Source: Leucoraja ocellata
Lineage: Eukaryota
Assembly (NCBI GenBank): GCA_036785375.1
Contig: JAWMAR010000578.1
Coordinates: forward strand, 868,001 to 932,000
DNA length: 64,000 nt
Reading direction: 5' to 3'
The notes under the pieces were generated by a model, which had not been told where the DNA came from, made no database searches, and saw only the letters and a list, made by a program, of their open reading frames with translations. Every line of letters begins with the position of its first letter. Positions within the stretch are counted from its first letter, which is position 1. Shown here piece by piece: positions 10,811-64,000 of this stretch. Both the position numbers and the translations under genes were made by a program.

Positions 10811-11183
10811 ATTATTCTCATCTGCGGTCAATGTAATTATAATCATGTGATAATCTTGCTATAAATCGCCGTGGAAAATTGAAGAAATTATATCTTATAT
10901 TTCTCTTTCATGTCTAGTTTTCACACCTTACACTTAGGGGTGGGAGTTTATCTCTGTGTCTCCCTCACCCCTGACTCAGTTTGAAGACAGGTCTCAAGCT
11001 GAAATGTCACCCATTCCTTCCATCCAGAGATGCTGCGTGTCCCGCTGAGCTACTCCAGCATTTTGTTGACTGGTACGTTAGGAACACTTGGCGCTGGAAT
11101 AATTCGGTGGGTTAGATGACATCCCTAAAGTACATATTATGAAGTTGTAGGAATAGCGACAAGTAGTTTAACTTCATAAGTTT

Positions 11184-12017
11184 ATAGGGTGATTTCATGA
11201 AAGGTCACTGGAGCGTAGATCCGCACCCACGTGACCGAAAATCTTAACTGGAGTACATGTTATACATCGGTGCATGTTAGTGATTGGGAAAACACGCACT
11301 TTCCCACCCGTTAAAAACATCGAAATGTCAATGTCCACAACAAGGCAGGATGGAAACTCAGGACTATGCCTTAGCTTATGGAAGGACCATTCAGAAGCAT
11401 AATAACGGGGGAAGAAGCTGTGGCTGAGTCTGGTGGTGTGTGCTCTCAAGCTTCTGTTTCTTCTGCCCTATGAGGACAGTGGGAAGCAGAAATGACCGGG
11501 GTAGGAATGGTCCTTGATTATGTTGGCTGCTTTCCCAAAGCAGCGTGATATGTAAATGGTGTCAATGTTGGCGAGTCTGGTCTGTGTGGTGGACTGAGCT
11601 GCATCCACAACTCTCTGCAATATCTTGCAATCTTGGGCAGGCATTATTAACTTACTTTTGATGAAATTCAGTGAGCAAACGCGATAATTCCTGATATTTT
11701 GGATCTTTAAATCTCCACGGCAAATGTCTGCTAAGCACTTCCGCTGTTTTTCCACCTTCAGTTCCCTCTTGTAATTACCTTACTTTCTATCTTTTTTTTT
11801 GCCTGAAAATTTAGGTCGCTGTGCTTCACGGTCACCCCGACTAGCACAGAAAATTTCAGCTCAAATATCGGCCGTTTTCCATGTTTTTAACGGGTGAGAA
11901 AGTGCGTGTTTTCCCATTCACTAACATGTACCGATGTATAACATGTACTCCAGTTGAAATTTTCGGTCACGTGGGTGCAGATCTACGCTCCAGTGACCTT
12001 TCGTGAAATTACCCTAT
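11184..12017. mobile_element. Non-autonomous DNA transposon (MITE) with ~140-bp terminal inverted repeats, containing a Rex1-like fragment (~11330-11640)
   Basis: 11184-11325 (atagggtgatttcatgaaaggtcactggagcgtagat...ttaaaaacat) is the near-perfect reverse complement of 11876-12017 (...atctacgctccagtgacctttcgtgaaattaccctat). Confidence 0.9.
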
Positions 12018-20117: not shown

Positions 20118-20378
<261 letters not shown>

Positions 20379-20649
20379 TGAGTCCATATGTCAATGAGAT
20401 CAATAACATCTAAAAGGTTGGGAGTATGAATCAAGTCCTTGAGAAACATTTTAAGTACATTTGGTGGCTGATCAGTGGTGTGTACTGGAGTTGGTGTATC
20501 TTTTGGTGTCCATCAATCTTACTAATGTCATGTTTCAGATGGTGACTGTAGCCAAATGTTGTAAACGTTTTCCATATGATGGACATGAGATGGTTAGACA
20601 CAAAAAGGCATTGATCATTTTCTATGAATATGTATGAATAGTGTGCAGC

Positions 20650-21370
20650 TAGTAGGTCTTAAATTCCATGTGGTCCATCATGTCTACTCCACTATTCAGT
20701 CATGGCTGATCTATCTTTCCTTCTCAACCCCATTCTCTTGCCTTCTCGCCTTAACCCCTGACACTTGTACTAATCAAGAATCTGTCAATCTCTGCCTTAA
20801 ACATATCCATTGTCTTTGTCTCCACAGCCGTCTGTGGCAATGAATTCCAAAGATTCGCTACCCTGTGACAAAAGAAAATTCATCATCTCTCTTTATTCTG
20901 AGGCTATTGCCTCTGGACCCGTACTCTCCCTCTAGTGGAAGCATCCTCTTCACTCTATCCAAGCCTTTCACTGTTTAGTAAGTTTCAATTTAGTCCCCCC
21001 CCAATCCTTTTAAACTCCAGTGGTTAGAGGCCCAGTGCCATTAAATGCTCATCATATGTTGACCTAATCATTCCTGGGATCATTCTAATAAACCTCATCT
21101 GGACCCTTTCCAAAGCCAGCACATCCTTCAGATATGGACCCAAAACTGCTCACAATTCACCAAATGCAGTCCGACTAGTGCATTTATAATGCCTCAGTAT
21201 TACACCCCTGTTTTTATATTCTAGTCCTCTCTAAAATTAATGCTAGCGTTGCATTTGCCGTCATTACTACCGATTCAACTTGCAAATGAATGTTTTGGGG
21301 CATCCTGTACCAGCACTCCCCAATTGCTTTGCCCCTCCAATTTCTCAATTCTCTCGCCATAATAGAAAAT
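20650..21370 (-). mobile_element. CR1 LINE 3' fragment in NUDT21 intron 2
   Basis: Same sequence type as 1-250 and 46615-46960 (RT C-terminus and 3' UTR). Confidence 0.8.
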
Positions 21371-22659
21371 AGTCATTTTATAAATAAGGGGTTCAGGATG
21401 ACTTGCTTTCACATCTCTATTCACTGGGGACATGTCAAAAACATCAAACTGTTTTAGTTGAGGACATTGACTTGAAGTCATAGTTTAACCTATATTTTCA
21501 TTTTAAACTGCATTTTTGGAGAATATTGGAAAATGAATTTTGTGGGCAGATCATATGTTTTCTAAGGTACTTTCAGTGTATTGAATTCAACAGTACTGGA
21601 GGAACTCAATCGGTCACGCAGCATCTGTGGAGGGAATGGAGCAGTCTGAAGAAGGGTCCCAACTCAAAACATCATCTGTCAATTCCCTCCATAGATGCTG
21701 CCTAACCTTTTGAGTTCCTCCAACGCTCCAGGTTCTAGTAACTGCAATTTCTTGTCACGTTTGAATTCAATACACTTTGGTTCACAGGATAAACTTGGTC
21801 TGGGGATGTCTAGTGAGAAAATGTAGATAGGTATTCCCTGCAGTAGAAGATTTGCTATATAGTGTTTAATTGAGAGGATATAGACTGATCTAAACTCACC
21901 AATCTGTTTCAGAATACTTCAATGCTATGAAACAGATCTCATGTAATTTATTTCATCTTGGTGTGCTTCCTGTCCCAAAACCATTGACTTCCAATCCAGT
22001 GCTGTTAACAGATGTATCAGTGTATACCAATGTAACTGGTGCAATGGTTACAGAGCAGACTATTTCTGAACACTAGTCTTCTTAACAACAGAATACAAAT
22101 CTTGTGTGCTTAATATACATGGTATTGGCAGCAGTTGTTAGTTAATGATTGAGAGCCCTATCTATCTCCACAGCCAAGAGCTAATGAGAATAATTTTAAT
22201 AACTGACTGTGATGGACACAGCTAGATTTGGTGTTTGTGAACAAAGTGTTAATGATCTATGCAGTGAACTGGACATGAGGGGTGTGGCAAAAATGAATGT
22301 TCATGCCCTTTTCCCTAGGATAGAAGATTCTAAAACTAGTGGGCGTTGGCTTAAGATGAGGGAAAAGATTTCGGAAGGACCCCAGGCAATTGAGGTAGTC
22401 TGCATCTGAAATGAACTGCCAAAGGAAGCAATAGAGGCAGATAAAAATGCCTTGTAAAAGGCATTTCAAAAGATGTATGGATAGGAAACATATAGCGAGC
22501 TAAGGGCCAATTGTAGGCAAATCAGATTTGCCCAGTATGCCAGCTTGGGTAAGGTAGGCTGAAGGGTCTGTTTTTGTGATTCTGAGCTCTAACATGTTTA
22601 GATGTGATCTAGAGTGCATTTTTTTTTTTTTTGCATTGTAACAGTTTTTGCTATGTTAA

Positions 22660-22767
<108 letters not shown>

Positions 22768-23203
22768 TAAAAGATCAGCTGGTTTGATTCTGGTTTGGAT
22801 GTCATTTTTTTACTAGCAGGCCTGATTTGAATCTTGCAAATTTTCTGAGGGTTGATGCAAGTATGGAAAGACTAGTGGAATCATAAAGATCATTTAGGTT
22901 TCCACAAACTGCAATCCTACTTCTCGTCTCTTCATCTAGTCTCAGCAATTTTGCTTTTCTTGCCTTTCAGGAAATTCCTTGTGATTTGTGCTCCATTTAC
23001 CATTATGTTTCCACTGATTTCCCCACCTTTTAAATAAGCTGTCAAAGTATCAGCCAAATAAGGTGTAGGGGGGGCGGGGTGTGATAACAACCTGATTAAA
23101 GCCAGCACCTATCAGACAAGCCCCAAGGGTTTGATGGTCCTTACCCCCAAGACGGAGAAGTTCACATCTGTTTGATGTTGAAGACGAACTGATACAACTG
23201 TAA

Positions 23204-23371
<168 letters not shown>

Positions 23372-23559
23372 TGATAACTATAAGTTCTTGAAACATGGTT
23401 GATGCTTTATAGAAAGATTAGATCTAGTTCAATGCTAAACACAATGTAAAGAACAGTGCTTCCGAAGGTTTGCGACTGTCTCGCTGTTCCCGAGTGCTAT
23501 TTATTATTAAAACTTAAAGAAAATGGCTTCACTTAGAGTTGTATAACACAAATATGTAA

Positions 23560-25930
23560 CATGCTGACCAAGCTACCACATCTGCACTAGTCCCACCTGC
23601 CCAAATCACTCAGCGATTCCTGTCCATGTACCTGTCCAAATGTCTTTTAAATGCTATTCTAGTACATGATTTGAGAATTAAGGGACAGAAGTTTAGAGGT
23701 AACATGAGGGGGATCTTCTTTACTCGGAGAGCGGTAGCTGTGGAATGAGCTTCCAATGGAAGTGGTGGAGGCAGGTTCGATTTTATCATTTAAAAATAAA
23801 TTGGATAGGTATATGGACTGGAAAGGAATGGAGGGTTATGGTCTGAGTGCAGGTAGATGGGACTAGGGGAGAATAAGTGTTTGGCACGGACTAGAAGGGC
23901 CGAGATGGCCTGTTTCCGTGCTGTAATTGTTATATGGTTATATGTTGTATGCTTATATCTGCTGAAACTATCTCTTCTGGCAGCTCATGCATATACCCAC
24001 CACCCTCTGGAAAAAGTTGACTCTCAGATTGCTATTAAATCTTTCCCCTCTCACCTAAACAAATGTCCTCTGGTTCTGGATTCCCCTATTCTAGGTAAAT
24101 GACCCTGTGCATGTACGTATGATCTCATACAGCTTGATAACCTCATCCTCTTGGGCTCCTAGAAATAAAGTACCAGTCTGCCCAACCTCTCCCCATAGCT
24201 CGGGCCTCAAGTTCTAGCAACACCCTCGTAAATCTTCTTTGCACTCTTTCCAGCTTGACAACATCTTTCCATTAGTGGGGTGACCATAACTAAACCAAAT
24301 ACTCCAAATGTAGCCTTACTGATGTCTTGTAAAACTGTAACATAATATCCTAACTTGTATACTCTGTACCCTGACTGATAAAGGCCACTATGTCAAAAGG
24401 CTTCTTGACCACGTTATCTACTTGTGACGCTACTTTCAAGAATTATATACCTGCACTCCTGGATCTTTACACTTTGCTGCACTCCCCAGGACCCAGCTAT
24501 TCACAGTGAAGGTCCTGCCCTGGTTTGAGGTCCCAAAATGAAACTCCTCTCATTTACCTGCAATGAACTCCAATAACCATTCCTTAGCTCACTTGACCAA
24601 CTGATCAATACTGTTGTGTAATCTTTGATGGTCATCTTTGCTATCTACAATACCATCCCTTTAGTGTCATCTGCAAACTTACCAATTCTGCCTTGTACAT
24701 TCTCATTCAAATCGTTGATCCAAACTGCAAATTATGAAGGGCCCAGCAGTGAGCCCTCAGACACCCCACTAGTCACAGGCCACTAGTTTGAAACACAGCC
24801 TTCTGCCATCCCCCTATGCTTCTTTCCATTGAACCACCTTTCTATCCAGTCAGCTAGCTCTCCTTGGATTCCATGCAATCTAACTTTCTAGAGCAGCCTT
24901 CCAGCAGACTGTAACAAATACCTTGCTGATATCCATATAGACAATGTCTACAGCTCTGCACTCATCAACCTTTTTGGTTATATCTCCAAAAAACGTAATC
25001 TGGTTGGTAAGATACAATCGTCCATGTACAAAACCATGCTGACTATCCCTAATCAGACCCTATCAAAATGTCCATATTTATCTTGCCCTTGGAATACTCT
25101 CCAGTAACTTGCCTGCTGCATATGTTAGGCTCATTGGTCTGTAAATCCCAAACCTTTCCTTGCAATCTTCCTTCAATGGAGGCACAACATTAGCCAACAT
25201 TTCCATCCAGTCTTATTTAATGAAGATTTGCATATTTCAGCCAGGACGCCTGCAATTACTTCTCTTATGTCCCACAGTATCCACGGACATATCTGATCAT
25301 GCCTGAAATATTTGTCTATCTTCATGCGCCTTGGGATGTCAGCACCTCATCAACTGTAATACTGACTGTCACCAAAACCCTTCCATTGACAACCCCAAGT
25401 TCCTCATTCATCTTTCTCCATGGTAAAAACAGGAGAAATACTCATTGAAGACCTTGCTCATCACCTGGGGCTCCACACAGATGACAGCTTTGGGTTCTGA
25501 GGGGTCATGTTCTCCCTCTAGTTGCCCTTTTCCCCTTAACACACTTAAAATCTCTTTGGACTTTCCTTAACATTATCTGCTGGAGTTATCTCCAAAGCTC
25601 TTTTTACCCCCCTGATTTCCTCCTTAAGTATGTTGCTCAGTTCCTGAAACTTCTCCAGGGATACACTTGATCACACCTCGCAAAACCTCCTTTTTCCTGA
25701 CCAGAGCCTCAATTTCTCTCATCATCCAAGCTTCCTCGCGTCCATCTGTCCTGGCTTCACCCTGGCAGGAACACTCAAGCCCTGAACTCTAGTCATCACA
25801 TTTTTAAAAGCATCCCACTTTCCAGATAATCCTTTGCCTGCAAACAACCTACTCCAATCACCTTGAGTTTCTTTCTAATGCCTTCAAAATTTTCCTTGCC
25901 CACATTCAGAATTTTAATCTGTAGGCCTTC
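23560..25930 (-). mobile_element. Long CR1 LINE remnant in NUDT21 intron 4, with a younger plus-strand CR1 3' end inserted at ~23666-23945
   Basis: Colinear with 59640-61790; the inserted piece matches 56560-56840 closely. Confidence 0.85.
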
Positions 25931-26322
25931 CTTGTCTTTATCTGGTTTAAAAGATCTCCTTTGGCTGAAATGTGATTTTTTTTGGAATGGAAATAATCTT
26001 GCAGGAATAATTGTACTATTTAATCTTATTCTTTGTTATATGTTATGTCACTGGTATGGAGTCAAAGTATTTCCAGAGACTAATTCTGGCATTCCTGTCA
26101 ACTCACAACAAAACTGCTTTGGGAACCATTCATTATATTGGAAAAATAAGCTATTATTCTGAGCTACTATAGTCTTGACTAGTATATCAGTGACTTGCTT
26201 GGATATCTTGATTTGCTGTTTGGTTTTCATCCACTGATGGTGATTAGTTCCAATATCTTTTTTAACAACTGGTGAATAATACATCTAAGTGCCCTGAAAC
26301 ATCATATTTTATATTAAGATAA

Positions 26323-26499
<177 letters not shown>

Positions 26500-26883
26500 T
26501 AGATACCATTTGATTTGTTGCATTGTCTCAAGTGCTTTGGTAAATGAGTGAAAAGGAAAGCGGCGCAAACAGTTCATATACTGCAAGATCCAATGAACAT
26601 CAGTTGCATATATGATTGATATGTTAGACTGTTGCTTGGATTATGTTGTTTGACTGTAACATTGGAATTTTGGCATCTGCATAGCAAATGTATAGGAGTT
26701 TGGTTAGTCAGTGGCTTGTATGAAGGGCAACTCTGATGCAATGCTACTTCAATTACTTATAGACTTGAATTTCACCTCTATCTTTGATTTAGATGTTGAC
26801 AAAAAGTGATGGCTGATGTTTGTGATGCAAAAAAAGTGTAATAAGTTGGCTGATATTATGGATGCTTCACCACACCCCAACAA

Positions 26884-27106
26884 TCTCTATACCTATAAAA
26901 GTCATCTTGTATTTGTGTGTATGTGTCTTTTCTACCTTCGTTAAAACGCCACGCGCTAGCCACACGCCACAGAAATGTTCACAGATTATTAATCACATTA
27001 ACCCCATCGACAAAATTAACTGCTTCACTTCAATTAATTTATCTTGGCATTGTGTGTGCCGCAACGTTATAGGCCCATTGGCCTCTTCCTGTGCTGCATT
27101 GTCTTG
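26884..27106 (+). mobile_element. Probable short non-autonomous Helitron
   Basis: A|TCTCTATACCTATAAAA 5' end similar to 47279; hairpin AGGCC-CATT-GGCCT near a CTTG|T end. Confidence 0.45.
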
Positions 27107-27165
27107 TATTTTGGATTGTGTTGGTTGGGGTCCAGGTGTTGTGTTGGTTATATTATGTTAAATAG

Positions 27166-27348
<183 letters not shown>

Positions 27349-32572: not shown

Positions 32573-33084
32573 AAAAATTTGCAGCCTTGGTCATATTGCG
32601 GATCGGGGCGAGGACAATTTGGTTGCACCTTGGCAGAAATCAGCCCACACAGCTAAGAGTATTTGTTAGATTGAAACTGGGATCAAAAGTGAGGGCGATG
32701 TCCTTGCACCATGGACCTTTACCATGGAAAGAGTCAGTTGGTGAATAATCTAAGCTGCATGTGGACTCATTCCCTGACTGATGAAGGCCAACATACCAAA
32801 AGTCATCTGACCACTCTATCTGTGACACCACTTTCAAGGAATTCTCCCAATTTTGCTAGCCCTTCCTGTCTCCTCCCCTTCCTTAACCCTCAAGTTGTCT
32901 CCTCCCATCTCCCCCCCCCCCCCCCCCCTGCCCTCGGGCTCCTCCTCCTCCCTTTTTCCTTCCTTCTCCCCCCACCCCCCATCAATCTGAAGAAGGGTTT
33001 TGGCCCGAAACGTCGCCTATTTCCTTAGCTCCATAGATGCTGCTGCACCCGCTAAGTTTCTCCAGCAATTTTGGGTACCTACAA

Positions 33085-35360
33085 TATTAGATCCCTTTGC
33101 TCCACAACACTTCCCAGGACCCTGCCTTTCACTGTGTGGGTCTTGTCCTGGTTTGATTTCCCAAAATGCAACACCTTGTGCTTATCTGCATTTAACATTA
33201 ACAATCTCTCAGCCCATTTCCCCAACTGATCAAATATCTGCGTTATCTACGATACCACCCACTTTAGTGTCACCTGCAAACTTATTAACCATGCCTTGTA
33301 CATTCTCATTCAAATCATTGATACAAACCACAAATAGCAATGGGCCCAGCACTGATCCCTGAGGCATAACACTAGTCACGGGCCTCCAGTCAGACAAACA
33401 ACCTTTCGCCATCACCTCTGCTTCCTTCCATGAAGCCAATTCTTTCCAGTACTCCCTGGATCCTATGCAATCTAATGTTTCTCTCCAGTAATTTGCCTAC
33501 CACAGATATTTGGCTCACTGATCTATAGTTCCTAAGATTTTCTTTGCAATGACATTCAGTACCTCCTCAACCATGAGGAAGAAGGGTCTAAAGAAGTGTC
33601 TCGACCCCGAAACGGCACCCATTCCTTTTCTCCAGAGATGATGCCTGTCCCACTGAGTTACTCCAGCTTTTTGTGTATGCTCCTCTTACATAATACATAC
33701 TGTCCTCGAGATTTCTATTATTGTTCCAAGTTCCTCTGTCTCCAGCAAGGAATGTCTGGAGGCCTGGGAGTAAGGGTGTGCCTCGGGGATTGGTGCTGGG
33801 TTCATTGCCGTTTGTGTTGCATGTCAATGATTAGGGCCAGAATATAGAAGATTTTTTTGGTAAGCTTGCAGATGACATTAAGTCAGTGGTAAAGTAGATA
33901 ATGAAGATGGTCATCAAATATTACAGCAGGATCTTGATCAGTTAGGCATGTGCAGATAAGTGTGAGGTATTGCATGTCGGGAAATAAATCCAAACATTTT
34001 CTGCAGCTCAGACCTGTTTAATGATGATTTGTTTACCTCAGCCCAGATGCTATTTCTTCTCTAACTTCCCACAGTGTCCTCTGATATATCTGATCAGGTC
34101 TGGTAGATTATTCTACATTCATACACCTCAGGACATTCAGCACCTCCTCGATCGTAATGTGGGCTGTCAAGACATTTTCATTAACTGTCCCAAGTTCCCA
34201 GTCTTCATGTCTGCCTCCATGTTAAAAACAGAGGAGAAATACTCGTTGAGTACCTTGCCCATCTCCTGCCGCTCCACGCAGAGATGACCACTTTGGTTTC
34301 TGTGGGGCCCTATACTCTCTAGTTACCTTCTTTTGCCTAATATTTTATAAAATCTGGATTTACCTTAATATTATTTGCAAGCGTTTCCTCTTGACCACCT
34401 GTTGGCCTCCTGATTTCCTTTCTAAGTATGTTCCTGAAAATTAGTTCCTGATACACTTACATCTGCCTAGACCTGACCTTTTTCCTGACCAGACCAGAAT
34501 GTCAATTTCTCTAGTCCAAGATTTTTTTACGGTCATCTGCCTTGACTTCACTTTAACAGGACATGCATGCCCTGAACTTTTCTTAATTTTTAAATTTTTC
34601 CTCACTTTCTGAATGTTCCTTTGCCCACAAACAACCTACTTGAATTAAATTTAGCAAATTCCTGTCTAACACCTTAAAAGTTGGCCTTGCCCAAATTCAG
34701 AATTTGAACTAATGGGTCCACCCTGTCTTTATCCATAACTATTTTAAAGTTAATAGAACAGAGCACTGGTCCCAAAAGGGTAATCTATGAACACATCAGT
34801 CACTTTCCTTTCCAATTGCCTTTGCATAGATCAAGCTTTGCCCTCTCCTACATATTGTCTAAGGTAACTTTCCTGACCATATTTGACAATTTCCATTCCG
34901 TCTAAGCTCTAGGTGTTATGACGATCCCAGTCTATATTGAGAATATGAAAATCCCAGATTTGACAACATTAGTCTTGAAGATGCCTGCAATCTCCTGGCA
35001 TATTTGCTCTTCTAAATTCCTGTTGATTATTTGGAGGTCTAAAGAACGCTCCCAACAACAATTTCATATTTCCACCCATATAACCTCACTGAACGACGAT
35101 CAGTAATGTCATCTCGGACTACTTCCATGAAGTTCTCCTTAAATAAAGCAACACTACTTCCTCTTACTCCTACCTCTCTCTCCTATAACATCTGTACCCT
35201 GTCCCTTTCTTAGCCAGGTTTCTGTAATGGCTACAATGTCCCAGTCACACGTACCCGCTACACATTACCTATAGACCTCTCGCATTAAAATAAATGCAAT
35301 TCAATCCAATAGTCTTTCCTCACTCCTTGCCATGCTCCTGCCTATTCTCTCCTCTAAACA
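33085..35360. mobile_element. Mosaic of CR1 LINE fragments, mostly minus strand
   Basis: 33230..33439(-) WRPVTSVMPQGSVLGPLLFVVCINDL...KFAGDTKVGG; further ORF2 remnants to ~35360. Confidence 0.8.
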
Positions 35361-35957
35361 TTCTCTCAGCATCTGTTTCTCACCTGCCTCAGTCCTGTAT
35401 TGGATCTCCCTCCCCCCCCCCCCCCCCCCCCCCCCGCCAATCTAACTTAAATCCACCCATGTAGTATTAGCACAACCTGAGACAGACACAAAATGCTGCA
35501 GTATCTCAGTGGGACAGGCAGCATTTTAGCAGAAAACGGATAGGTGCCGTTTCGGTCCAGGACCCTTCTTCAGACTGATTGTAGAGAGGGAGGTCTGGAA
35601 GCTAGGAGGAGGCCCAGGACAGAACCTGCCTCGGGAACTGCCTCGATATTGGTTCCAACCAGTTCAGGTGCAACCATCCCTATTGCACAGGTCACCTCTG
35701 CCTCAGAAGTGATCCACCGCACCAAGAAACTTGAATCCAAAAATCTAATTTGTAAGTCATGTTTGAGAACAATCACTTTGAAAACCAGGCCTAGAAATGG
35801 AAAGGTGTCCGTGGTGACAAATTGTGAAAGCAATCCATCAACGGGGGAATCGCACCCATGCTGTTTGTACACTTGCACAGGGTGTCAATTCTAAATATAA
35901 ACAAAGATACAAGGCTATACCTTTGACTTAAAGAAAGTGAGAGGAGTCAAGAGTAGT

Positions 35958-38219: not shown

Positions 38220-40226
38220 CTGCAGGAGAAGCAGATACATTTAAAACTGTAAAACAGATAAACTAAGAAACTGGTGAGAAATTAGGAGTCAGGAAGGCAG
38301 AGCACTCCGAATGTGTCTTTTTATCCTTGGTGTACAAGCATTCCAATATATACCGAATGGAACGAATTGCATTATTTGCAAGTTAGCGAATAAATATATA
38401 TCGTCTGCTTTGATCTGTCATTTTCAGATCTGACATCTCTTTGTAACCTTCCATATCTCTAGTTTCCCTCTCCACTGACTCTCAGTCTGAAGAGGTGTCT
38501 TGACAGGAAACGTCACCCATTCCTTCTCTTCGATGATGCTGCTTGACCTGCTGTTACACCAGCATTTCATGCCCATTTTCGGTGTAAACCATCATTTGCA
38601 GTTCCTTCCAACACAGATGTATGGTAAACACGTAAACCGTGTCACATAATGATCCAGTGAGCTTCTCTCTGTGCATGAAAGTTACTTATGAAATATAAAG
38701 TGAGACTTGCTTTTTTCTTAGCAGATTCCATATTTTAGGACCGGCATATAGCACCTGATTCTACAGCTTTTAAGGTGTAACAAAAGCAATTTACCTTTAC
38801 ATGCGGGATTGCAAGCCTTTAACGTGTTCAAATATTTCAAGAAACAGGCAGGCCTTCCAACAAGATTTGCCTCCAAATCGCAGATTATGAGAAATTAGGA
38901 GAGTCATAGCACGAAAACCGGTCATTCCGCCACTCACCCATGCCGAGCACGTTGCCCAACCGAGGTAGTCCCAGCTGCCTGCCGTAGGAACCCAACAGGC
39001 TTAGTTGCATTGCTGGAGGGAAATTACGTTTCGAGTAGTGACCCTTCTTCAGATACCCTCCGCACAAGCTACCTGAGATGCTAAGTATCTCCAGAACTTT
39101 GCAGATGCTGGAAACATTTAAAAAGCAATCTCCTTTGCCTCCTACTTACCTGCTCCTGGCACATATCTATTCAAACCGTTCCCGTCCATATGGAGGTGAC
39201 ATGATACTTGGTAGAAATGGTAGAACATTTAAGGTGAGATTATAAGCCAGAAGGGCATGGAGGGGCATAGTGTGGGTAGTTGGTGGCATCATGGGCAGTA
39301 AACGGATAGAATAATTACATTTGAATACAACTAGACGAATACAGTGACATTTCATGTTGGTAAACTTATAAGGACTAGAGAATAAGGCCAGATGACCTCT
39401 CCGGGTGCACGATTGTGGTCGTTCCTCAATTAGAATCCATTTCTTGCCCATTGTTCATACCTTTTGATTTTAAAACACAAATGATCCGGGTAAAACTGAC
39501 AAGGCCAGCACATACAGTATTCCCAATTCATACTTGTCCTTCACAATGTGGCAGTGAGCAGCCTTTGTGAATCACTGCAGTCCTCTCGAAGATAATTCCA
39601 CAGTGTTATTGGGTAGGGAGTTCCAGGATCAAATCCAAGCGACGATACGGCCGATTTATTTACAAGTCATGATGGTTTGTGACTCGGAAGGGAATTTGCA
39701 GGAGATGGCGCGTTCCTATGCACCTGTTGCCCTTGATCATCATTTTCAAAAACTATTGATCTCAGCTCTGAAATACAACATTATGAATCTGTGATGTTCC
39801 GAGGTACGGAATTACAAAGATTCACGCATCTCTGGGAAGTGAAATTTATCGCCTCAATACAAACGTTAAAAGCCGACTTCCTGTCTTAAAGAAAATATGT
39901 CTTGTTCAGAGCATTCTCCTTCCCCATTCGTCATATTATGTCACTTTGTAGTCGCGAGTTGAATGTGTGCTTGCTACACCACTGTCAAGTGCCTGAAAGT
40001 TTGCTGTTTCACACGCACAATATACATTAAACGTATCAATTAATCGTCGCAGTTCTAATTGAGAAAATATAGCGCTAAATGATGCATTAGGTGGCTTGCA
40101 CATCGATATTCTACTGTGAATAAATAGGTTAACATTTACTACTCCACGTACAGTATTCGGCCAGATATAATTTCTAAATCGGATCGGAGGTCTCCCTCTG
40201 TTCCCAGTTCTGTTTGCCAGTCTTAC

Positions 40227-40517
40227 CTGGCTTGACGGTGTAGTCGACTCTGGCGGGGACCGCAAGGGAGACATGTGACACTTTGCAGGTGTAAATATCA
40301 ACGCGCCAGGTAGGCTTTGTTACTTCGAGAAAACTGGAAGCCACATACAACCCCCCCACGCTACTGGTGTTCACAGGTTCCTCCCCGGTGGAAATTGTTA
40401 CACCATTTCTTTGCCAGGATATTTTGACTTCCTTCGGGGAAAAGGCAGCCGTTTGACACACAAGTTTTGGCGGCGAACTGCCATTAACTTGGCTAATGCT
40501 CAGGGGAGTTGGCGGAG
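40227..40517 (-). CDS. Ig receptor gene A, C1-set domain exon
   Basis: (A)PPTPLSISQ...LVCQTAAFSPKEVKISWQRNG...LYVASSFLEV...YTCKVSHVSL; C1 motifs C-x4-F-x-P-x6-W and Y-x-C-x-V-x-H; AG/GT, 291 nt, phase 1/1. Confidence 0.92.
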
Positions 40518-40779
40518 CTGTAACAGAAGGAAAAAAAAGTTATGTTGGATGTCTTCTTTCCATGTCAATGAATACTCTGTCGTACGGCTTGTGAAGACAT
40601 TGCAGTATCATGACCACATGGGTTATCGGTACGTTCACTTTGAAACTCGTGGATTTGTCACTGATTTATAGTTAGTCTTACCATGGACAGTAAAATACAT
40701 TCAAGGAACACATAGGGATGTGATTTTCGATTTAAGTAATATGCGGAGAATGTTGCAAAGAATGATACAGGCCCGGTGT

Positions 40780-41010
40780 CGCCTTCACGCTGACTATTAA
40801 ACTCCTATTAATTTATCCAATTTTCCTGTCGCATCCATATCAACTGTCCTCATTCTTCCCCACCACAATCAATTATCACGGGATAATTTACCGCTGGCTA
40901 CCCTACCAACCAGCGAAAAGTTGGCAATGGGTAAGTTAGCGTAGCAACGGAAGAAAAACCACGAATTTACGAGGAGATTGTTAAACTGCACACAGACTAA
41001 CGAATCCTAA
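40780..41010 (-). mobile_element. Degenerate V-SINE, at the equivalent position to 62860-63090
   Basis: Reverse-complement similarity to the 32255-32572 V-domain. Confidence 0.55.
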
Positions 41011-42675
41011 CGAATCCAGCCCTGTATATATTCACATCTCGCCAATGCATATGGTCGAGGGGCAGGGTTTGGCTACATCTATCGATCTGAGGTTTGGCCC
41101 CATAATAGTTCAAGATACAAGATACAAGGTACATGTAATTGTCACATGTGCCAGACTGGGGTTGAGAGTTCAGATGAAGTAACTTTCACAAGGAAAACCT
41201 TTTCCAGGCCGCGATATACGGTATGATTGTACACGGTATGATTGAGTTATACTGACAATTGGTTGATAATAACAAATAAAGGTGATAGAACGTGAAAGTG
41301 ACTTCCAATGTGGCAACACATTTTATCTATATCTCTGGCCTTTTCTAAATTTGCTCGATATATTGAACGCATTCCATGTAAGTAAGATTCTATTGAACCG
41401 AACTCCATATTTGTCATTTACGAACACTGATCTTTCTCAGTTAAATCTACAGTCAATGTTTAGCTGGAAGGACAGGTGTATTGGGAGTCATTACAAGCAA
41501 TCTGTTGAACACCTAACTTTTAAATGTTCTTACATTCCGTTTTTGTACTAACAAGTTATTGAATCAGGATCATTATTGCCTTCGGGAGAGAGTTCTGTGT
41601 TTATTCTCAACCTCAGCGAGTGCACTACCAGCTAAAACTCAAAGTTTCTCCATGGCACAAAAACAGATTATTTTATGTGGAATAAATATTTGTTGCGATG
41701 TTGAGTGACAGCGCCGTTTTACTTGTAGGCATTTCAACCGAGGGTCGTGTAAATGGAAACCACGATTTGCAAGGACAGGAGCACTAGTGGTTCTTCAAAA
41801 GACCTTTACATTCTGTTCGTGCTTTACAAATATTTGGCGGTTAAATAAAAATGCTCGAATACACAAAAACCGTAACTCAGCGGGACAGGCAGCATCTCTA
41901 GAAAGAAGAATTGGGTGACGTTTCGGGCCGAGACCCTTCTTCAGTTTGAATCATCACTATTAGAGATGCTGCCTGTCCCGCCGAGTAAATTCAGCATTTT
42001 TTGTCTATCTTTAATACATCCAAATCATGAGAGCTCCCTTTATTCACACGTTTCCTGACTTTAAGGATAAAACTAATAGATTTCGGAAAATTAGTTATAA
42101 CAAATACTGGGTAGACAACTTGTAGCGGTTGCGTCAAAAAGAATAAGATTGTGTGTGGACTGTGGGTGGACACAGTTCTGGGGAGGTTGTAGCCACAGTT
42201 GGCCTGGAATGGTGACTTTTCATTATACACAAGAGCAGACCCAGACTCAGTGTGTTAAAATGATTCCCGTGAGGAAAAAGCCGCCATACTTCCCACAGTC
42301 CAGATTAAATATCCAAGTGGCTTGAGCATCTTCACTGAAAAACAATGTGATCACTGAGCACCGTGGGAATGATGAAGAGTGAATCTGAATCGTGGGCGAT
42401 AGCAGCGCGACTACAGAAGGACAAAGGAAAAGGCCCCCTGGAAGCACGAAAAACGAGAACAACCCTCCCTCGCCACACACATGCTGCCCGATCAGCTAAT
42501 TATTTCCAGACATTTCAGATTTCAAGTCAGCAGAGTGGTTTGATTTCATAACAAAAAATACAGTTATTAGTAATCATCCAGTTTTAAGCCAGTGATAAAA
42601 TGTGATGTTATTCACATTAGAGAGCATAATTTATACTATAGAGAGCTTACGTTCTCTCCGTCATGGGATACTTAC

Positions 42676-42981
42676 CAATTACAGTCAGCCTGGAGCCAGG
42701 TCCATCTCCGATAGATTGCTGCTGAACTTTCACTTTACAATAATAAACCCCGGAGTCCGCTATATTTGCATTCAGGAGAACAAAATCCCCAATGCCCTTT
42801 CTGGTAGAAATTATTTTTCTGCTGTCTGGTTCTATAAGTGTCTTCTCTCCCCATCTCCACCAGGAAACATCAGGAGTAACTTGTTGTATTGAGAACGTGC
42901 AGAACATGGACGCATTGCCTCCTCTGTGGACTGTCAGCTCTTTCGGGAATTGGTCCACTTTGGTCGTAGTTACTTCGTTGG
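42676..42981 (-). CDS. Ig receptor gene A, germline-joined VJ-type domain (NCR3/NKp30-like)
   Basis: (A)NEVTTTKVDQFPKELTVHRGGNASMFCTF...VSWW...DSGVYYCKVKVQQQSIGDGPGSRLTVI; J-like GxG-x-x-L-x-V in the same exon; ggcag| and |gtaagt, 306 nt. Confidence 0.92.
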
Positions 42982-43186
42982 CTGCCAGAAATTAAGGAAA
43001 ACACGGAAAACAGTTGCACAAACTGGACAAGGAAAATTAATCAAGAGTTGAAAATTACAAAAGTAAATTAGAATTAGCGACAAGCGAGCTGGAGAAGCAC
43101 TGTAACTAAATTCACAGTGGGCAACTAAATGGAGTATTCTAAAACAGAATTAAATATGATGGACCGGCACATATATCTAAAAGTAC

Positions 43187-43241: not shown

Positions 43242-44149
43242 ATTATAAGATAGTTGTTGGCCGCTTGTTGCAAATGAGAGGTTTCCTAAAAGATCCTTGC
43301 AAGAAAGAGTTGCTGGTGAATAAATATTTTCCGCTTGTGACCATGACATAGGATGTCACATGACGGTAAAGTGGGTTTCACATTTGGTTCGGTGTTGGTG
43401 GAGTACTAGTGTGAGCGAGGGTCCGCCCCCACTGCCAAGTGAACAGTTTCTATCGGGGTACAATTCTCTCTCAGACTTCCCTGGATCCATGTTCAAATGA
43501 TTGACTGACCATTCAGAAGAGAATCGCAGATTTTCCTCATTCGACGCAAGGGACTTACAATCTAATATGAACTTTAAAAAAAAAATTACAGGGGGAAGGA
43601 AGGAGAATGCGGTTGAGAGCGAAGGGTTAATCAGTCATGATAGGATGGCGGAGAAGACTCGATGGGCTGAATGGTCTAATTCTGCTTTGATTTATGAGCT
43701 TATGAATTTATTTCGTCACCCCACTTCGGGTTTGATGTCTTTCTAATCTCTCTTATGTTCCATGTCCCAGGGCTTGAAGCCCATTGGAAAAACAACAGGA
43801 GTAACTAACCCAGATATGTCTTTCTTTATTTCTTTTGCTTCAACCCAGCCTGATTTTAATTGGAATATAAAGCAAGGAAGGATGAACTGAAATGGACGAT
43901 TAGAAGGACCAAAAGTTGCCACGAGGTGCTTGAAGAAGGGTCCCGAAACGTCACCCATTCCTTGTCTCCAGAGATGCTGCCTGTCCCACTGAATGACTCC
44001 AGTATAAAAGGTGCCACAAAATGGTTTTGGGGAGTCGGTTTACATACAATCCCTTTAAAAAAAATACCTACATTAAAACAAGAGGGTAACGAAGAGAGGG
44101 GAGGGGTCACTCAATGTAAAATAGCAAATTTGTGCATGGAGTCGGGTTG

Positions 44150-46310
44150 AGGCAAAGTACTAAACAGGTACATTGCATCTGTATTGACTGAGGAGAAGGG
44201 CATGGAAGACGGTGAGTTCAGTGTTGAGAATATTAATTTTCAAGGACAGATTTTTGATTAAGATACAGGGGTTTTTAACAAACATTAACGTGGATAAATC
44301 CACAGGGCCTAACGCGATATATTTCTTGAGAGAGGCAAGAGCGGAAATTGCAAGAACCTTGACAAAGATTTTAGCATTTTTTCTGGCTACATGCAATGAT
44401 CTGGAAGACTGCAGAGTAGCTAATGTTGTTCCATTGTTTAAAAAGGGAAATAGAGGGAATTTAACTAATATGGGCCTGGTGCACCACACGTCAATAGTAG
44501 GGAGGCTATTGGATATGATTCATTTGGATAGGATTTATTCCCATTTGGAAGAGAATGGTTTCATTTAGACAGTCAGCATGGCTTTGTACATGACAGGTCA
44601 TTTTTTACTAATGCTCCAGATTTTTTGAAGAAGGAGCAAAGGTGATCCATGACAGTAGAATAATGGATGGCATCTACATAGATTTTAGCGATGCATTTGA
44701 TGTAGGCTGATCCAAAAGATCAGGATCTTGTGTATTAACAGAGGATTAACAATGATTTGATTGTATGGATTCATAAATGGCTTACTAATAGAAGGCAGTG
44801 GGTAGTGGTGGAAGAACAATATTCAGGCTGGAGGTCTGGATGATCTATTGTACATTTTTGTTGTACTCCGTCCCCTTTGATATCTTGTTTTCACACCTTA
44901 CCCATCCATATCTTTGTGTCTCCCTCTCCACTGACTCTCAGTCTGCAGAAGGGTCTCAACCTGAAATGTCACCCATTCCTTCTATCTAGGGTTGCTGCCT
45001 GACCTGCTGATTTACTCCAACATTTTGTGTTTTTCTTTGGTGTAAATCAGCATCTGCAGTTCCTTCCTACACTTAATAATTTCTTTAGCTGAAGGGCAAC
45101 ACACCAGAGGACTGGAGAACAGCCAATATTGTTCCTTTGTTTAAGAAGGAAACTAGAGATGATCAAGGAAATTATAGGACTGGGCCTCACATCAGTGATA
45201 GAACAGCTATTGGAGTGGATTATTTGGGAGAGGCTTTATTTGTGTTTGGAAGAAAATGGGCTAATTAAAGACAGTCAGCGTGGCTTTGTACATGGAAGGC
45301 CATGTATTATGACCCTGATTGGTGTTTTTGAGCAGGAGATGAAGGTGATTGATCTGGGTGGGGCAGTGGATGCTGTCTACGTTTATTTTTGGCTAGACAT
45401 TTGATAAAATCCCTCATGGTAGGTAATCCAAAAGATGAAAGTGTTTGGAATCCAAAGTGATGTGGTTGTTGGAATTCAGAACTGACTTACTCAGAGCAGA
45501 CTGAGTGCTGTGATGGAAGTGAGTTATTTTGGCTGGATGTCTGTGACTAATAAAGTTTCTCAAGGATCTGCACTGGGACCTCTGTCATCAGCAATATATA
45601 AAAATGATTTGCAAATAAATGGGTTGGTTAGTAGTTATCAAATAATACCAAAATTGGGAAACTTGTGGAAAAGAGGTTGGCAGTCAAGTTATATAAGAGG
45701 GATTATAATCAGTTGCAGAAATGGATGGAGAAATGGCAGAATGAGTCTGCAAGTGTGGTGCACTTTGGGAGGTCAAATGTAAGGGGAAAGTATACACTCA
45801 ATAGAAAGTACCTCAGCAGCATCGCTATACAGCGAGCTCTCGGGCACCTTGTTCACAGCTCCCTGATAGATAGATATGCCATTTATTGTCACTATACATG
45901 TATAGTGAAATTGAAAGCTGCTCGTACTCAGTGCATGCATATAATTTAGTACAAAAAACAAGAAACAGAAAAACAAAACAGAAGGGATAAGGGGGGGGGG
46001 GGGGGGGGGAATAGGTGCTCAATTCTGCGGCGCTATATACATATATACATATATACAGATGGAAGTCCGGGTGTTGGGCTGTGAAGTCAGTGCATGTGTG
46101 AATTTGAATTAAGAGTAGTTATAATTTTCGGAAAGATAAAGATAAAGTAATAAAGAAAGCATCTGATATGCTTGCTTGCATCAATCAGAGCATTGAATAG
46201 AAAAGTCAGGAAATCGCGTTTAATTCAACTTGGCACCATGTTCGGCATGGACATCAGGCATGGGTTCAGGGCCTGTTCCTGTGCTGTACTTTTCTATGTT
46301 CTAATATGTT
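44150..46310 (+). mobile_element. Two successive CR1 ORF2 remnants interrupted by a Penelope-type repeat
   Basis: EDCRVANVVPLFKKGNR; LIKDSQRGFVHGRPCIMTLI; VSQGSALGPL. Confidence 0.8.
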
Positions 46311-47278: not shown

Positions 47279-48662
47279 TCTCTATAATACTAAAACTCTT
47301 CCTATTGTTTGTGTTTGTGCCCACGATGTTTCAATCTGCTTTTCCTATCTTCTTCCAAACGCGAGGCCACAGCCTTACAATTTTCACATATCCTACTCAC
47401 ATTTTCCCCGTCGAGGCGATAAACATCTTCTCGTCACATTCCCGCCTATATTTCCAAAGTTATTAATCCTTTAAATTTTAAAAACAGCCCCCAAAACTCG
47501 CCCATTTCGGAAAAAAGAACCAGAGTGACGTCACAATGCACTTGCAAGGCAGGACGGGACACTCCAGGGGGGAGGGGCACTCCAATGCTCGCGGTGAACG
47601 AGGGGTGGTGGTGGCTGCTGGCGCCCGATGCCCAAACCTGGTGGGGAGTGTGGTGCTGGAGCTGGAGTGAGAGCTGAGCCCGGGGCTGGGGATGGGGCGC
47701 TGACCGGGGCCGAGAAAGAAGCTGCCGCTGGAACCAAGGACAAGCCTGGGTCCGGCGTCATGGATGAGCCCTGAGATGAAGTCAGGACCTGCACTGGAGC
47801 CCAGGCGGCAGCCGAGCTGACGGATGGAGTCTGGAGATGAAGTCGAGGCCTTCACTGGAACCCAGGCAGCGGCCGAGCTGACGGCTGGAGTCTAGTGTCA
47901 GGACCGAGCACAAGTACGAGAACCAGGCCGAGTTCCAGGCCCTGGCGCTGCTCTACGACCTGGGTAGGTGCTGGGGCAGGGAATGGGAATGAGGCGAGGA
48001 GGATGAGGGAAATGAGGAGGAAGGAGATGTGGTGGGGAGTGGAGTGGTAGAGGGAGACGGGGGTGTGTGCAGGAGGCTAGATGGGGAGGGGTGGAGGAGG
48101 GAGAAGCCCCTCCCTATCTACCCTCACTCTCACACTCTCTACCCCCTCCCTCTCTACCCCCTCCCTCTCCTTCCCTCACCCTCTCTTCCCCCTCTCTCTT
48201 CCTCTATCCCCCCCGTCTCTCTCTCTACCCCCTCCATCTCTGCCCCTCTCACTCTCCAGCCCCCTCCCCCACAACCCCCCTCCACTACCCTCCCTCTCCA
48301 CTCCCCCTCCCTTTCGTTCTCTACCCCGTCCCCCTCCTCTCCCTCTCTACCCCTTTCCCTCTACCCCGTCCCTCTTTGCCCCCCCCACCCCCTCCCTCTA
48401 TACCCCTCTCCCTCTTTACCCCCTCCCTCTCTACCGCCCCACCCTCACTACCCCCTCCCTCTCTAGAGATTGAAGAGGGAGGGTGAAGAGGAGTAGATGG
48501 GAGTGCTGGGGGATGAGTAGAAATGAGCCGCACCTGCGCAGTTGGGGACTATGCGTGAGTGGCGCAATATTGCATTGGGGGAACGGCTTGTGTTGGGGGA
48601 ACGGGTGAGTGGTGGAATCTTGCGTTGGGGGAGTAGACCCAATGGGTCTGCACTTGGTCTGG
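47279..48662 (+). mobile_element. Non-autonomous Helitron-like element inserted in a CR1 fragment
   Basis: A|TCTCTATAATACTAAAA start; AGACCC-AAT-GGGTCT hairpin 8 nt before CTGG|T; no TSD; the flanks rejoin into contiguous CR1 3' sequence. Confidence 0.8.
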
Positions 48663-52155: not shown

Positions 52156-52559
52156 GTGCGTGCTCTGGCTACAGCGAATTACAGACAGAAAGCTGAAGTT
52201 TGAAGAAAGGTCTCGACACGAAACGTCGCCTACACATCTGATCCACAGAGTTACTCCAGCACTGTTAATCTTTTTTTAAATTTCCTTCCAGAGGACGTAC
52301 CCTTTCCAATCGCAATGGAACAAGAAGCAAAAAAAGACATTTACAAAGGACGAGAATAAATTGAAAAGAAGGCTGATAAGCACGCACGCATGTACAGATT
52401 TAGATACACATACACACATTTATTTAAACGCATACGTTTTACTGCGATGTTTTCTCAGAAAACGCCAACTTTCATTGATACAACATCTTCAAACCATTTA
52501 AAGAAAATACACAGAACGTGCTTTACGGGAAGATAAAGGTCTTGCAAAGTGAGTTTAGG

Positions 52560-57348: not shown

Positions 57349-58865
57349 ATAGTTACCAGTATCTTTATATCAGATCTAATTTCGCATATTGATAAAAAAA
57401 TTAATTGACAACGATTTGTCCGGAATTAACTTGTCCAATATATGTTTTGAGCAGTGGATTAAGTTTATAACCTTTGCTTCCTTTGTGAAATATTCTGCAC
57501 TGATTAATTTGGATTCAACATTTGTGGTTATCAGGCAGGCGGGTTGCAGACATCGGAGTCATGGTGACTTAACTCATCAGCCTCAGGCATGCTGAGGTTA
57601 TGGAATGATGGGAGAGCGCAATATTCAGGTGCTGGAGGCACCGCCCAGATGGAAGAAGGACATGATGCTAAATTGCAGAACGGATTGACAAAGTCTGTAG
57701 TACTTCGATGAAGCCACAAGGTGGAGCCCGCCCCTCGCGCAATGTAAAGAGGCTCTCTATGGCAGATGGAAGCGATTTTCTTTCTGATGAAGGATACAGA
57801 GGAGCTGGACATCAATTCGGACTTGGGATCTGGCCTTTCAACAACAACACCAGGATGCATAATTTTATTCAGATCTTTGTAAAATCAAGACTCGCCTCCC
57901 TGAACAAAGCTGGAATTACTCGGCCAAATGCAGCTTTTAAGACTGAGACGGTGGTCCGGTTTTGAGTAAATAGTGCAATTTTCAGTATAATACGCTTAGA
58001 TTCAGTCAGCCGTTTCTAGCACGATCTGTTAAAGAAACAAAACATTTAAAGTTTATATCAACTGAATTATTGTGATAAGTCCCCTAGCGTTCTTACCCGT
58101 TTCTATCACATACCCGGAGGTCTTTCCATGTTCCTCTCTGTTCATTGTTTGCTCTGATGTCTCGACCAATCGGTCAACCTTTACCACGGAGCCTAGACAG
58201 GAAGACAAATTAATTGGGTACTATAGTGCAGATTTGGCGATCGTGAGTTATTTTGAATGTTGACATATTTTCTTACACCACTCTTATTATGAGCCGACAA
58301 GACATCTAACGGGCGCCGATTCCCTATTGCCCAATTTGTGCTCCCGACTAAAATCGATTTGTCGCCTTTGTCTCCAGATGGGTTCGAGGTCAAGGCGAGA
58401 GAGTCACCACTAAATGATACTTTGAATAATTATCTGAACATCAGTTTTGAAGACATTCCCGACGCTTCATCTTACAGGGATCAGCCGCGGCTGGGCTCCA
58501 CCCTTCAGAAGCAAAAACAATGGGATGGGGACCAATTCGGGCAGATGCAGAAATCACAACATTCAGCGGAGTCCCGACTGACCACAAAAATGAAAGAAGG
58601 AACGGTAATCGTGCCGACAACTTTTAAATCAAAGGATTGGGAAATAATCAATTTATCCAACATGCATTGGCCCAAGATAAACAGTTGCACAAAGCTGTAA
58701 CTTGAGGAAGGAAACCGCTCCAAGTGGCGACATCTAAATTACAACCGCTCTCATCTTCCAATTCTGCATGTGGCGTTTCAGCAGTGGAACAATTATTTTA
58801 TAACAGTTCGATTAGAAGACGGTATTGTATTCCTTGATATTAACGATGATTAACAATTTATTTTT

Positions 58866-61790: not shown

Positions 61791-62114
61791 TGAAATATCT
61801 CAACATTGCAAAGTTATTTCCCGACTATATATAAAGAACGTGTACCTCTATCCCCATCTCACTGATTGTGTCTTTTTGATTATTTTTTGTTTGCTAACAC
61901 CTCTGACAGCCTTGAAGGTTTAGCCACGTCACAGACACTATAAATATTGAAGATGCAGATATAATTTAGAAAACAGATGAGAGCATATGATACGTCAGTT
62001 TGCCCGAACTCCCGCGGCGAATAAACACGGTCCACATTCAGCCCGTCTAGTCGTGTTTGAGCTGTATCCATCAATATTTCTAAATCTGTTCCCAGCTCTA
62101 TTTGCCAGTCTTAC

Positions 62115-62405
62115 CTGGCTTGACGGTGTAGTCGACTTTGGCCGGGACCGCAAGGGAGACATGTGACACTAGGCAGGTGTAAATATCAACGCGCCAGGTA
62201 GGCTTTGTTACTTGGAGAAAGCTGGAAGCCACATACAACTCCTCCACGCTACTGATGTTCACACGTTCTTCCCCGGTGGAAATTGTTACACCGTTTCTTT
62301 GCCAGGATATTTTGACTTCCTTCGGGGAAAAGGCAGCCGTTTTACACACAAGTCTGGGCGGCGAACTGCCATTAACTTGGCTAATGCTCAGGGGAGTTGG
62401 CGGAG
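62115..62405 (-). CDS. Ig receptor gene B, C1-set domain exon (V and leader expected beyond the window)
   Basis: 291 nt with the same splice sites as 40227-40517; 15 nt differences counted by eye. Confidence 0.92.
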
Positions 62406-62859
62406 CTGTAACAGAAGAAAAAATATGTTGCACATTTTCTTTCCAATTCAACGATAACATTCTAGTTTGCCTCGTCACACCGCGACCTTGCACTCCCACC
62501 ATGAGATCGGTTATCGGTACAATCGCTTTTGCAATCACTGATTTGTCATTGTTTTAGATTTGACAGTGAAATATATCCAAGCAATACATAAGGAATCCGA
62601 GGTTTGGATGTAGGTAATATGAGGGCTTCTGAACAATCGCCAATGTTCTAAAGTGCCAAATCAGTAGCGTGGCGGGTGTGTATCATCGATGGCAACAACT
62701 TTTTATGTTCATTCAAAAATGACTGTTTTTACGAGATTTTGGTGTAAAGAATGATACGTGTAGAGTGGAATATCACAGAGATACACAGCACAGCACAGCA
62801 CAGAGCAGCCCAGATTACCTATTGCGTAATTAAACCTCCATCTCCACGTATTCATTTTT

Positions 62860-63090: not shown

Positions 63091-64000
63091 TATCCAGATG
63101 TCACCAATATCAATAATCAATACGCAGGCCGTAGTTGCATTGATGAAAGCTTGGGCCACACAATTGTTTAATACCTGGGATGGAGGGCTCGAGTGATACA
63201 GCTTTTGGCCCGGGACGTTTCTCCACAATGCTAACCGAGCAATTTGAGCATGATAGAGTTATACTAATAGTTATTAAGAAGGAAATGCAGATGTCTGGAG
63301 AAGGATCTCGACCCGAACCGTCACCCATTCCTTCTCTCCAGAGATGCTGCCTGCCCGTTAAGTTACTCCAGCTTTTTGTGTCTATTTATTGATAATTAGT
63401 ATCGCCGTGCAAATATTAGACACTTCTTCAATAAGTACAATACGCGAATGGGAAATCCAAATTAGACTACGTTTCTTCTACAATTTTGCCATTTTCCAAA
63501 TGTACTCGGTTTGTTGAAGACGTTTGGTCTGAATAAGATTTCACTTATATCAGCACAGAGTGGGTATTTGCGAACGCTGATCTACCTCCGTCGGATCTAC
63601 AATCAGTAGGTAGTTAGTAGGAGGCCTCTTGTTAAATCGCTCTACGAGTTGATGACTACGAGTTTAATAAGTTTTAAATATTTTTACATTCCGTTTCTTT
63701 AGTAACAGGTTGTTGGATCGGTTTCTTTATTGAACTCAGAGGAGACCTCGATGCTTATTCTCAGCCTCGGCGAGTGCATCATCAGCTAAAACGTAAAATT
63801 AATCTGTGGCACGAACACAGATCTATTTAGATAGAATGAATAATTGGGGGGAAACGTGGAGAGACTGATTCTTGTGGGTAACGTGGTTGAGTCATGTAAG
63901 AATGTAATTGTAAGGACGGGAGCTCAGGCGTTTGCCCCAATGCCGTTAAATCTTACTCGTATTTTATAAAGGTTAAGGGTTTAATGAGAATCCTCGGAGT

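Follow-up and report, generated by a model that had tools for sequence, protein, structure and literature searches.

The window, by which we mean the whole 64-kb stretch of skate DNA analyzed here, holds parts of several host genes and many copies of one short repeat. On the minus strand, exon 1 of AMFR (10533-10132, 98% to Leucoraja erinacea AMFR) is the only exon of that gene in the window; NUDT21 (PF13869) has four exon matches at 20178-27348 on the plus strand; and an Ig-superfamily receptor gene (40177-42991, minus strand) contributes an Ig V exon frame at 42991-42650 and an Ig C1 exon frame at 40539-40177. The intron between these two has GT and AG splice sites, and the RNA runs, which were without coverage of the receptor exons, gave no spliced reads confirming it. 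A second Ig C1 exon at 62086-62424 (minus strand) is 88% identical to the first, which points to a duplicated V-C1 receptor gene, and the window has only one V exon. Further features include a decayed LTR-retroelement remnant at 12266-14041 (minus strand) with matches to the integrase zinc-binding and core domains, a low-complexity stretch at 47990-48480, purine-rich and then pyrimidine-rich, that can fold back and gave chance matches to miRNAs in Rfam, and two open frames of protein-like composition without a Pfam match (58293-58697, plus strand; 57534-57884, minus strand). An Atlas search with the AMFR exon returned no match, PDB searches with this exon and with the reverse transcriptase (RT) piece described below returned nothing useful, and no RNA runs were listed for window positions 1500-6500.

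Within the V-C1 intron, in sense orientation, lies a repeat copy made up of a hammerhead core and a tail (41845-41948, minus strand). Its core (41944-41917) agrees letter for letter with the reading of a first-pass annotation, which had described CUGAAGA, one extra A, GAAA, an ACGU palindrome and a GUC cleavage triplet. The architecture is that of a minimal type I hammerhead, with the CUGANGA and GAAA boxes, U16.1, H17, the G10.1-C11.1 pair and stem II (4 bp, including one G-U pair) all present, and the palindrome at 15.1-16.1, which is ACGU both in the family majority and in this copy, would permit a dimer stem III. Stem I is 0 bp, with an A-A mismatch at 2.1/1.1. Across a spacer at 41945-41961, of which only the first bases are related to the element, the copy stands head-to-head with an inverted tail arm without a core (41962-42024, plus strand), and pairing with this arm is predicted to enclose the core in a long hairpin. 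In the predicted fold stem II has a probability of 0.0, and the copy sits in a fold-back hairpin. Lacking stem I, and adopting in these models a fold other than the hammerhead, the copy at 41.9 kb is predicted to be non-cutting.

Cores of this kind occur far above chance. A search with a minimal-hammerhead descriptor, a check that the first-pass annotation had itself proposed, gave 21 cores in the 40 sampled 10-kb stretches plus 4 in the window; the reversed sequence gave 0, and ten dinucleotide shuffles of the 464 kb gave 0-1 each. An Rfam scan of the window gave no hammerhead among its 12 matches at E<=1, all of which we rejected as low-complexity chance matches under gathering scores. Five window copies served to build a profile, which picked up 24 pieces in the window; with an extended profile and a stricter cut-off the count was 22. 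The repeat has the most self-matches of any in the window, in keeping with its earlier description as the commonest short repeat. The 14 further sites that had been listed as related cores are all family members, including one at 2895 that is only a half core (2878-2905, minus strand; the first box and part of stem II, without GAAA) and was missed by the profile. As cores the 15 sites are more modest: catalytic boxes are kept in 6, and a closed stem II and the palindrome as well in 4 (5391, 32987, 39052 and 41944). At these four, stem I measures 1, 1, 2 and 0 bp, a correction to the 2-3 bp that had been proposed for most copies; that most copies are probably inactive is supported.

The copies at 2.4-8.6 kb lie, we infer, in AMFR intron 1 and mostly antisense, since exon 1 is the sole AMFR exon in the window. 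They comprise a partial tandem at 2361-2805 (plus strand), in which a tail and an ORF start of ~60 codons jump to a 3' UTR followed by a core with a broken palindrome and another tail; an old degenerate copy at 4733-4831 (minus strand); another old copy followed by one with an intact core (5391) and a 1-bp stem I at 5317-5498 (plus strand); and a copy truncated within the core at 8556-8635 (minus strand). A copy with a short 3' UTR and broken core (10977-11066, plus strand) lies upstream of the AMFR start codon. Head-to-head pairs occupy 19662-19870 (old) and 21588-21727, the latter with a broken core and flanked by NUDT21 exons. The intronic positions named by the first-pass annotation are supported. 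On the plus strand there follow an intact core with 3' UTR and 1-bp stem I (32983-33093), a copy with a broken core (33585-33681), and a long-tailed copy with intact boxes and a broken closing pair of stem II (38483-38608); on the minus strand, a copy with a broken cleavage triplet (35472-35577), which has a small fragment of Penelope-like element (PLE) RT upstream at 36069-35953, and an old copy with intact boxes, a GUA triplet and a 2-bp stem I (38984-39053). The remaining plus-strand copies all have broken cores: solo copies at 43930-44005 (with a 12-bp target site duplication [TSD] candidate), 52197-52283 and 63292-63397, and a copy with 3' UTR and long tail at 44939-45070.

The family is real and very abundant in the skate genome. 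We took 10-kb samples, 40 in all and each from a different contig of the 3.44-Gb assembly, at round-number positions, and found 205 pieces, 126 of them covering the core, amounting to 4.2% of bases, and none in reversed sequence; the family end thus makes up 4-5% of sampled DNA. Extrapolation gives ~1.1 million core-bearing pieces and, from 21 intact minimal cores in the sample, 180,000 intact cores (Poisson 112,000-277,000), with a real uncertainty wider than Poisson because stretches held from 0 to 24 pieces and the assembly contains duplicated stretches. The exact degenerate core pattern matched 74,111 times in the whole assembly, and the reversed pattern 0 times. The window itself has a near-identical twin on another contig (C1270) and many of the loci read were also paired; separate haplotypes or duplications have probably been retained in the assembly. 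One subfamily, in which stem II contains a U-G pair and the triplet is GUU, accounts for a large share of the pristine cores among the matches listed, which suggests that it is among the youngest.

The Penelope origin proposed for the repeat is borne out by its junctions, which connect it on both sides to an ORF encoding RT and GIY-YIG. In the first two loci, a GIY-YIG-like frame ends ~110 nt before the core, and among 38 loci picked solely for their GIY-YIG region the repeat lay just downstream on the same strand in 36, with the core in 34. Upstream walks passed through a Cys pair and YIG, a CX4CX2C linker, DKG and RT motifs and ended at the ORF N-terminus, which is joined directly to the repeat's tail with a putative start codon ~167 nt after C3; the same junction in the partial tandem at 2361-2805 ties the repeat to a PLE ORF within the window. 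As a query, the RT piece returned 40 proteins, several of them carrying RVT_1+PF26215+GIY-YIG and the top two being batoid records (Mobula 75%, Amblyraja 81%); an 893-aa RVT_1+PF26215+GIY-YIG protein is collinear with locus L094 over residues 167-844, and an Atlas search with the C-terminal RT piece gave PF26215 clusters. Among the element's own broken frames, Pfam matched one of eight pieces (GIY-YIG, E=8.4e-4, below cutoff at 20 vs 22.6 bits) and none of the RT pieces. The ORFs are broken in every copy read, the element unit was assembled from overlapping walks, and no intact full-length element occurred among the loci from four walks (40 of 1,729-11,716 candidates scored per search). Pieces of the PLE RT also turn up in three records of skate or ray proteins whose names refer to kinase or chitinase-domain isoforms, reflecting either exonization or annotation error.

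The end is repeated before the ORF start, and partial tandems and an inverted 5' copy complete a pLTR organization. The repeat is the pLTR-plus-tail end of an EN+ PLE, probably of the Neptune/Nematis type, a clade placement that rests on the CX2-5CxxC linker between RT and EN, also found in the homologs. According to published descriptions (bioRxiv 2021.04.23.441226; PMC3846280), Neptune/Nematis elements share with the skate element the RT, DKG, the CX2-5CxxC linker and, at the C-terminus, GIY-YIG, together with 5' truncation, partial tandems, an inverted 5' copy, an optional 30-40 bp tail, also present in skate copies, and TSDs. They differ in that most skate copies are only ~100-135 nt long and start at the hammerhead edge, with no intact copy seen. 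None of the papers listed in our literature searches describes the skate family, and Repbase/Dfam or the supplements of a retrozyme preprint discussed below may already list it.

How the short copies end is informative about how they were made. We classed by their flanks the 155 copies, sampled or from the window, in which the core is covered: 85 were solo, a class that may be inflated if old subfamilies are lacking from the 3' UTR library, 56 stood head-to-head with an adjacent inverted arm, and 14 ran into a shared 3' UTR (at a looser cut-off, 23 of 133 tail-bearing copies; ~30 by eye). Variable TSD-like matches of 10-15 bp were found in 13 of 73 strict solos, compared with 1.6% of swapped pairings, the other 60 having none at the cut-off, and in 11 of 34 young solos (two of them duplicates), compared with 3 of 1000 controls. 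Most copies measure ~95-135 nt, their 3' ends clustering at +90-105 and +123-131 from C3, ~37 nt apart, in agreement with loose ends in RNA at +88/+95 and +131/+132. At the other end, 5' truncation proceeds at 0.3-0.7% per nt over +10 to +69, and at least three quarters of the copies that reach the core begin 0-8 nt before it. The rate at the cleavage site is 0.5%, and the 133 tail-bearing, core-reaching copies have no excess of 5' ends there. Since a cleaved RNA would give starts after C17, and none are in excess, the RNA template was likely uncut.

We consider it quite probable that the repeat is the end of a PLE bearing the known minimal hammerhead, that its short copies stem from uncut RNA copied up to the motif's front edge, and that the copy at 41.9 kb does not cut. 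The element's own enzyme would start within the tail and would copy the uncut RNA only as far as that edge. A more specific reading, which we advance tentatively and would not back at even odds, is that the short copies, roughly one million, arose as strong-stop-like cDNAs from the 5' leader of uncut PLE RNA, itself starting at the ribozyme edge, with RT initiating in the 5' tail and running off the RNA end after 95-135 nt; the ~10^5 intact cores would exceed the counts in PMC4209133 more than 10-fold. If true, this would explain the 2-bp stem I, with few nucleotides upstream, and a protein-gated ribozyme, and it would supply a very large natural archive on which PLE insertion could be tested.

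An RNA 5' end at the core's front edge is our preferred cause of the 5' pile-up. The alternative, a serious contender that we nonetheless rate as rather less probable than its negation, keeps the same PLE and lets the sharp 5' ends arise at insertion, through cDNA stopping or resolution at the near-palindrome TCAG-T-CTGA. Many head-to-head junctions run exactly through this sequence, the ends spread over ~10 nt with microhomology or extra bases, and palindromes at inverted pLTR junctions are described for rotifer PLEs in PMC3846280; against this, the end point is the same in solos that have ordinary TSDs and lack a partner arm. There is no clear cap signal: a G before AGT, as a cap would leave, occurred in 14 of 27 copies in a small sample (p=0.017), and genome-wide in 3056 of 8529 (36%, vs ~30% expected), with a similar excess one base on, where the count was 43 of the first 100 among the matches listed. 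At TSD-defined junctions, an extra G was present in 2 of 5 G-class solos, and other additions were as frequent. The TCAGT at the core's front edge resembles the initiator consensus, which favors an RNA start over an insertion step. An Inr-like TCACT is noted in PMC3846280, and an internal Inr/DPE promoter is reported for Drosophila virilis Penelope in PMC2377424; the DPE match in the skate element is weak. At 3' UTR-core junctions (e.g., 44900-44943), a pyrimidine tract ends in CAG 2 bases before the core, resembling a splice acceptor. A reading of this CAG as an acceptor, with host exons as the 5' flank, is disfavored because the upstream sequence is the TSD wherever a TSD is seen, and might apply to a minority of copies.

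Whether the hammerhead does anything is a separate matter. In 113 inserted copies, the core is essentially no more conserved than the flanks (divergence of 5.9% at non-CpG core positions vs 7.8% in monomorphic flanks, p=0.06; 22 of 113 intact), one of two outcomes that the first-pass annotation had named as together speaking against its reading, and G12, at 27% divergence, is similar to other CpG sites; on these observations, inserted copies decay neutrally, without selection after insertion. Between subfamilies, differences fell on 0 of 10 non-CpG core positions vs 13 of 52 in the flank (p=0.10), and when 21 structural positions were counted post hoc the result was p=0.015. At the three structural positions that do vary, pairing or the NUH rule is retained; the pair-keeping changes are one-sided, and for no pair do two-sided changes exceed 3 of 113 copies. 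That the motif changes between subfamilies keep pairing lends weak support to selection on the motif in source elements. The short stem I, at 2 bp, is the family's majority state and does not reflect decay of individual copies. In the majority monomer, the minimum free energy is -12.7 kcal/mol vs -3.9 for the hammerhead shape, stem II has a probability <0.01, and pairing of the purine run with the tail is predicted to be favored over it; for a dimer in which both stems II form together with the ACGU duplex, the value is -12.7 vs -29.3 for the cofold minimum. These energies leave out tertiary contacts and co-transcriptional folding.

In four RNA runs carrying a related label, which may not be of the same species, the repeat makes up 0.2-0.8% of reads in both orientations, and repeat-bearing reads mostly continue into unlike flanks (53-97%). 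None of these runs has a pile of read starts or ends reaching a fifth of depth, a level beneath which low-level cleavage would go unseen, and back-joints in the RNA fall within the tail rather than at the cleavage site and may stem from genomic tandem tails.

It is possible, though we think it somewhat unlikely, that even the source elements have a hammerhead incapable of catalysis, retained as a signal for protein binding or promoter activity. Every subfamily seen has the 2-bp stem I, the competing helix would hide stem II, and we found no subfamily with a longer stem I in 60 loci read (30 each from 158 and 792 pattern matches), nearly all of which were point variants of the main family. Against this, a 2-bp helix I is also reported for D. 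virilis Penelope (PMC4209133), and the subfamily differences described above (0 of 10 vs 13 of 52; pairing or NUH rule kept) argue in the same direction. For the Anolis Poseidon element PAc, the published work (PMC11167929) cuts both ways, hammerhead mutants being without effect on insertion in vitro and the hammerhead cleaving with protein, which it needs. On our favored account, the hammerhead, if it works at all, would do so in source elements, with ACGU joining two copies into a dimer and with help from protein; in inserted copies it would be a passenger. Locus L239 has a different tail and a possible bulged stem I. Old copies at 5317-5392 and at locus L165 near 2030 suggest a variant whose stem I has 4 bp and follows a GUU triplet; the pattern search found no such subfamily.

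The first-pass annotation had proposed a discrete non-autonomous element. We did not find one; the copies instead form a graded series derived from an RT+GIY-YIG element by 5' truncation, inversion and partial tandem formation. A retrozyme- or SINE-like element, ribozyme-driven and amplified from its own short transcript, appears improbable, notwithstanding that most copies are 95-135 nt long with shared ends and TSDs. It also draws on close tandem pairs with both cores intact (7 of 32 among the pairs listed, with L241 and L242 near-duplicate loci; examples are L137 at 164 nt and L012 at 207 nt) and on a preprint that reports non-LTR retrozymes derived from PLE pLTRs in one chondrichthyan (bioRxiv 10.64898/2026.07.22.740005). 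Those retrozymes resemble the skate repeat in their PLE derivation, type I hammerhead and some close tandem pairs; they differ in forming tandem arrays of a fixed monomer, whereas the skate ends are dispersed with variable 5' extent. We saw no tandem array of a fixed hammerhead monomer and no close same-strand core pair in the scan of the 64-kb window, and elsewhere scattered same-strand pairs at spacings of 104-461 nt. The same end is joined to ORF pieces of every length, and starts precede the core, whereas a retrozyme monomer would start at the cleavage site. The internally shortened tandems read break at different points from copy to copy among those listed, which argues against a single non-autonomous master. 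That intronic copies were co-opted to cleave or regulate the pre-mRNA of AMFR, NUDT21 or the receptor is very improbable despite their intronic placement and abundance in RNA, given neutral decay, an intact AMFR-intron copy that is antisense, a broken NUDT21 core, a sense copy in the receptor gene without stem I, and a density of one repeat piece per 2 kb, at which intronic positions are expected and need no special explanation.

The ribozyme side of these results is ordinary. Hammerheads in PLE pLTRs have been known since 2014 (PMC4209133), and those published share with the skate motif the core boxes, an extra nucleotide before G10.1-C11.1, a palindromic 15.2-16.2 without stem III, and placement in the pLTR, mostly as single dispersed copies. 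Stem I is 2 bp in skate and in D. virilis, where the Penelope intron ends at helix I, vs 4-5 bp in Schistosoma, and skate stem II is 4 bp (PMC4209133). The skate total of at least 74,111 exact cores stands against ~4,000 in coelacanth and ~9,000 in Xenopus (PMC4209133), a comparison across differing methods and with duplicated stretches in the skate assembly. Published minimal hammerheads are inactive as monomers and weak as dimers (PMC4209133), and 1 of 9 Xenopus dimers cleaved according to bioRxiv 10.64898/2026.07.22.740005.

A close parallel is PAc (PMC11167929, Frangieh et al. 2024), for which two RT start sites were shown that the two skate 3' ends match. In PAc two tail end points lie 30-40 nt apart, uncut RNA is the apparent template, no RNA reads pile at the hammerhead cut site and the tail continues into the ORF start, all as in skate. 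PAc belongs to another clade and its ORF starts at stem II, vs a putative start ~167 nt after C3 in skate. PLE terminal-repeat hammerheads being already known and the skate copies decaying neutrally, what matters here lies elsewhere: fixed ends on both sides, together with TSDs and inverted pairs, allow the internal-initiation model for PLE reverse transcription to be checked against what happened in vivo, and the natural two-core tandems of the skate genome offer ready substrates on the role of the PLE hammerhead. That 5' ends fall mostly at the motif's front edge is the one unusual detail of an otherwise ordinary repeat. Finally, locus L212 carries, at ~1697-1900 (oriented), ~66-nt tandem units of the tail starting at the GAAA box, and the same tail-to-GAAA junction appears in 3,437 reads of one RNA run (X16).
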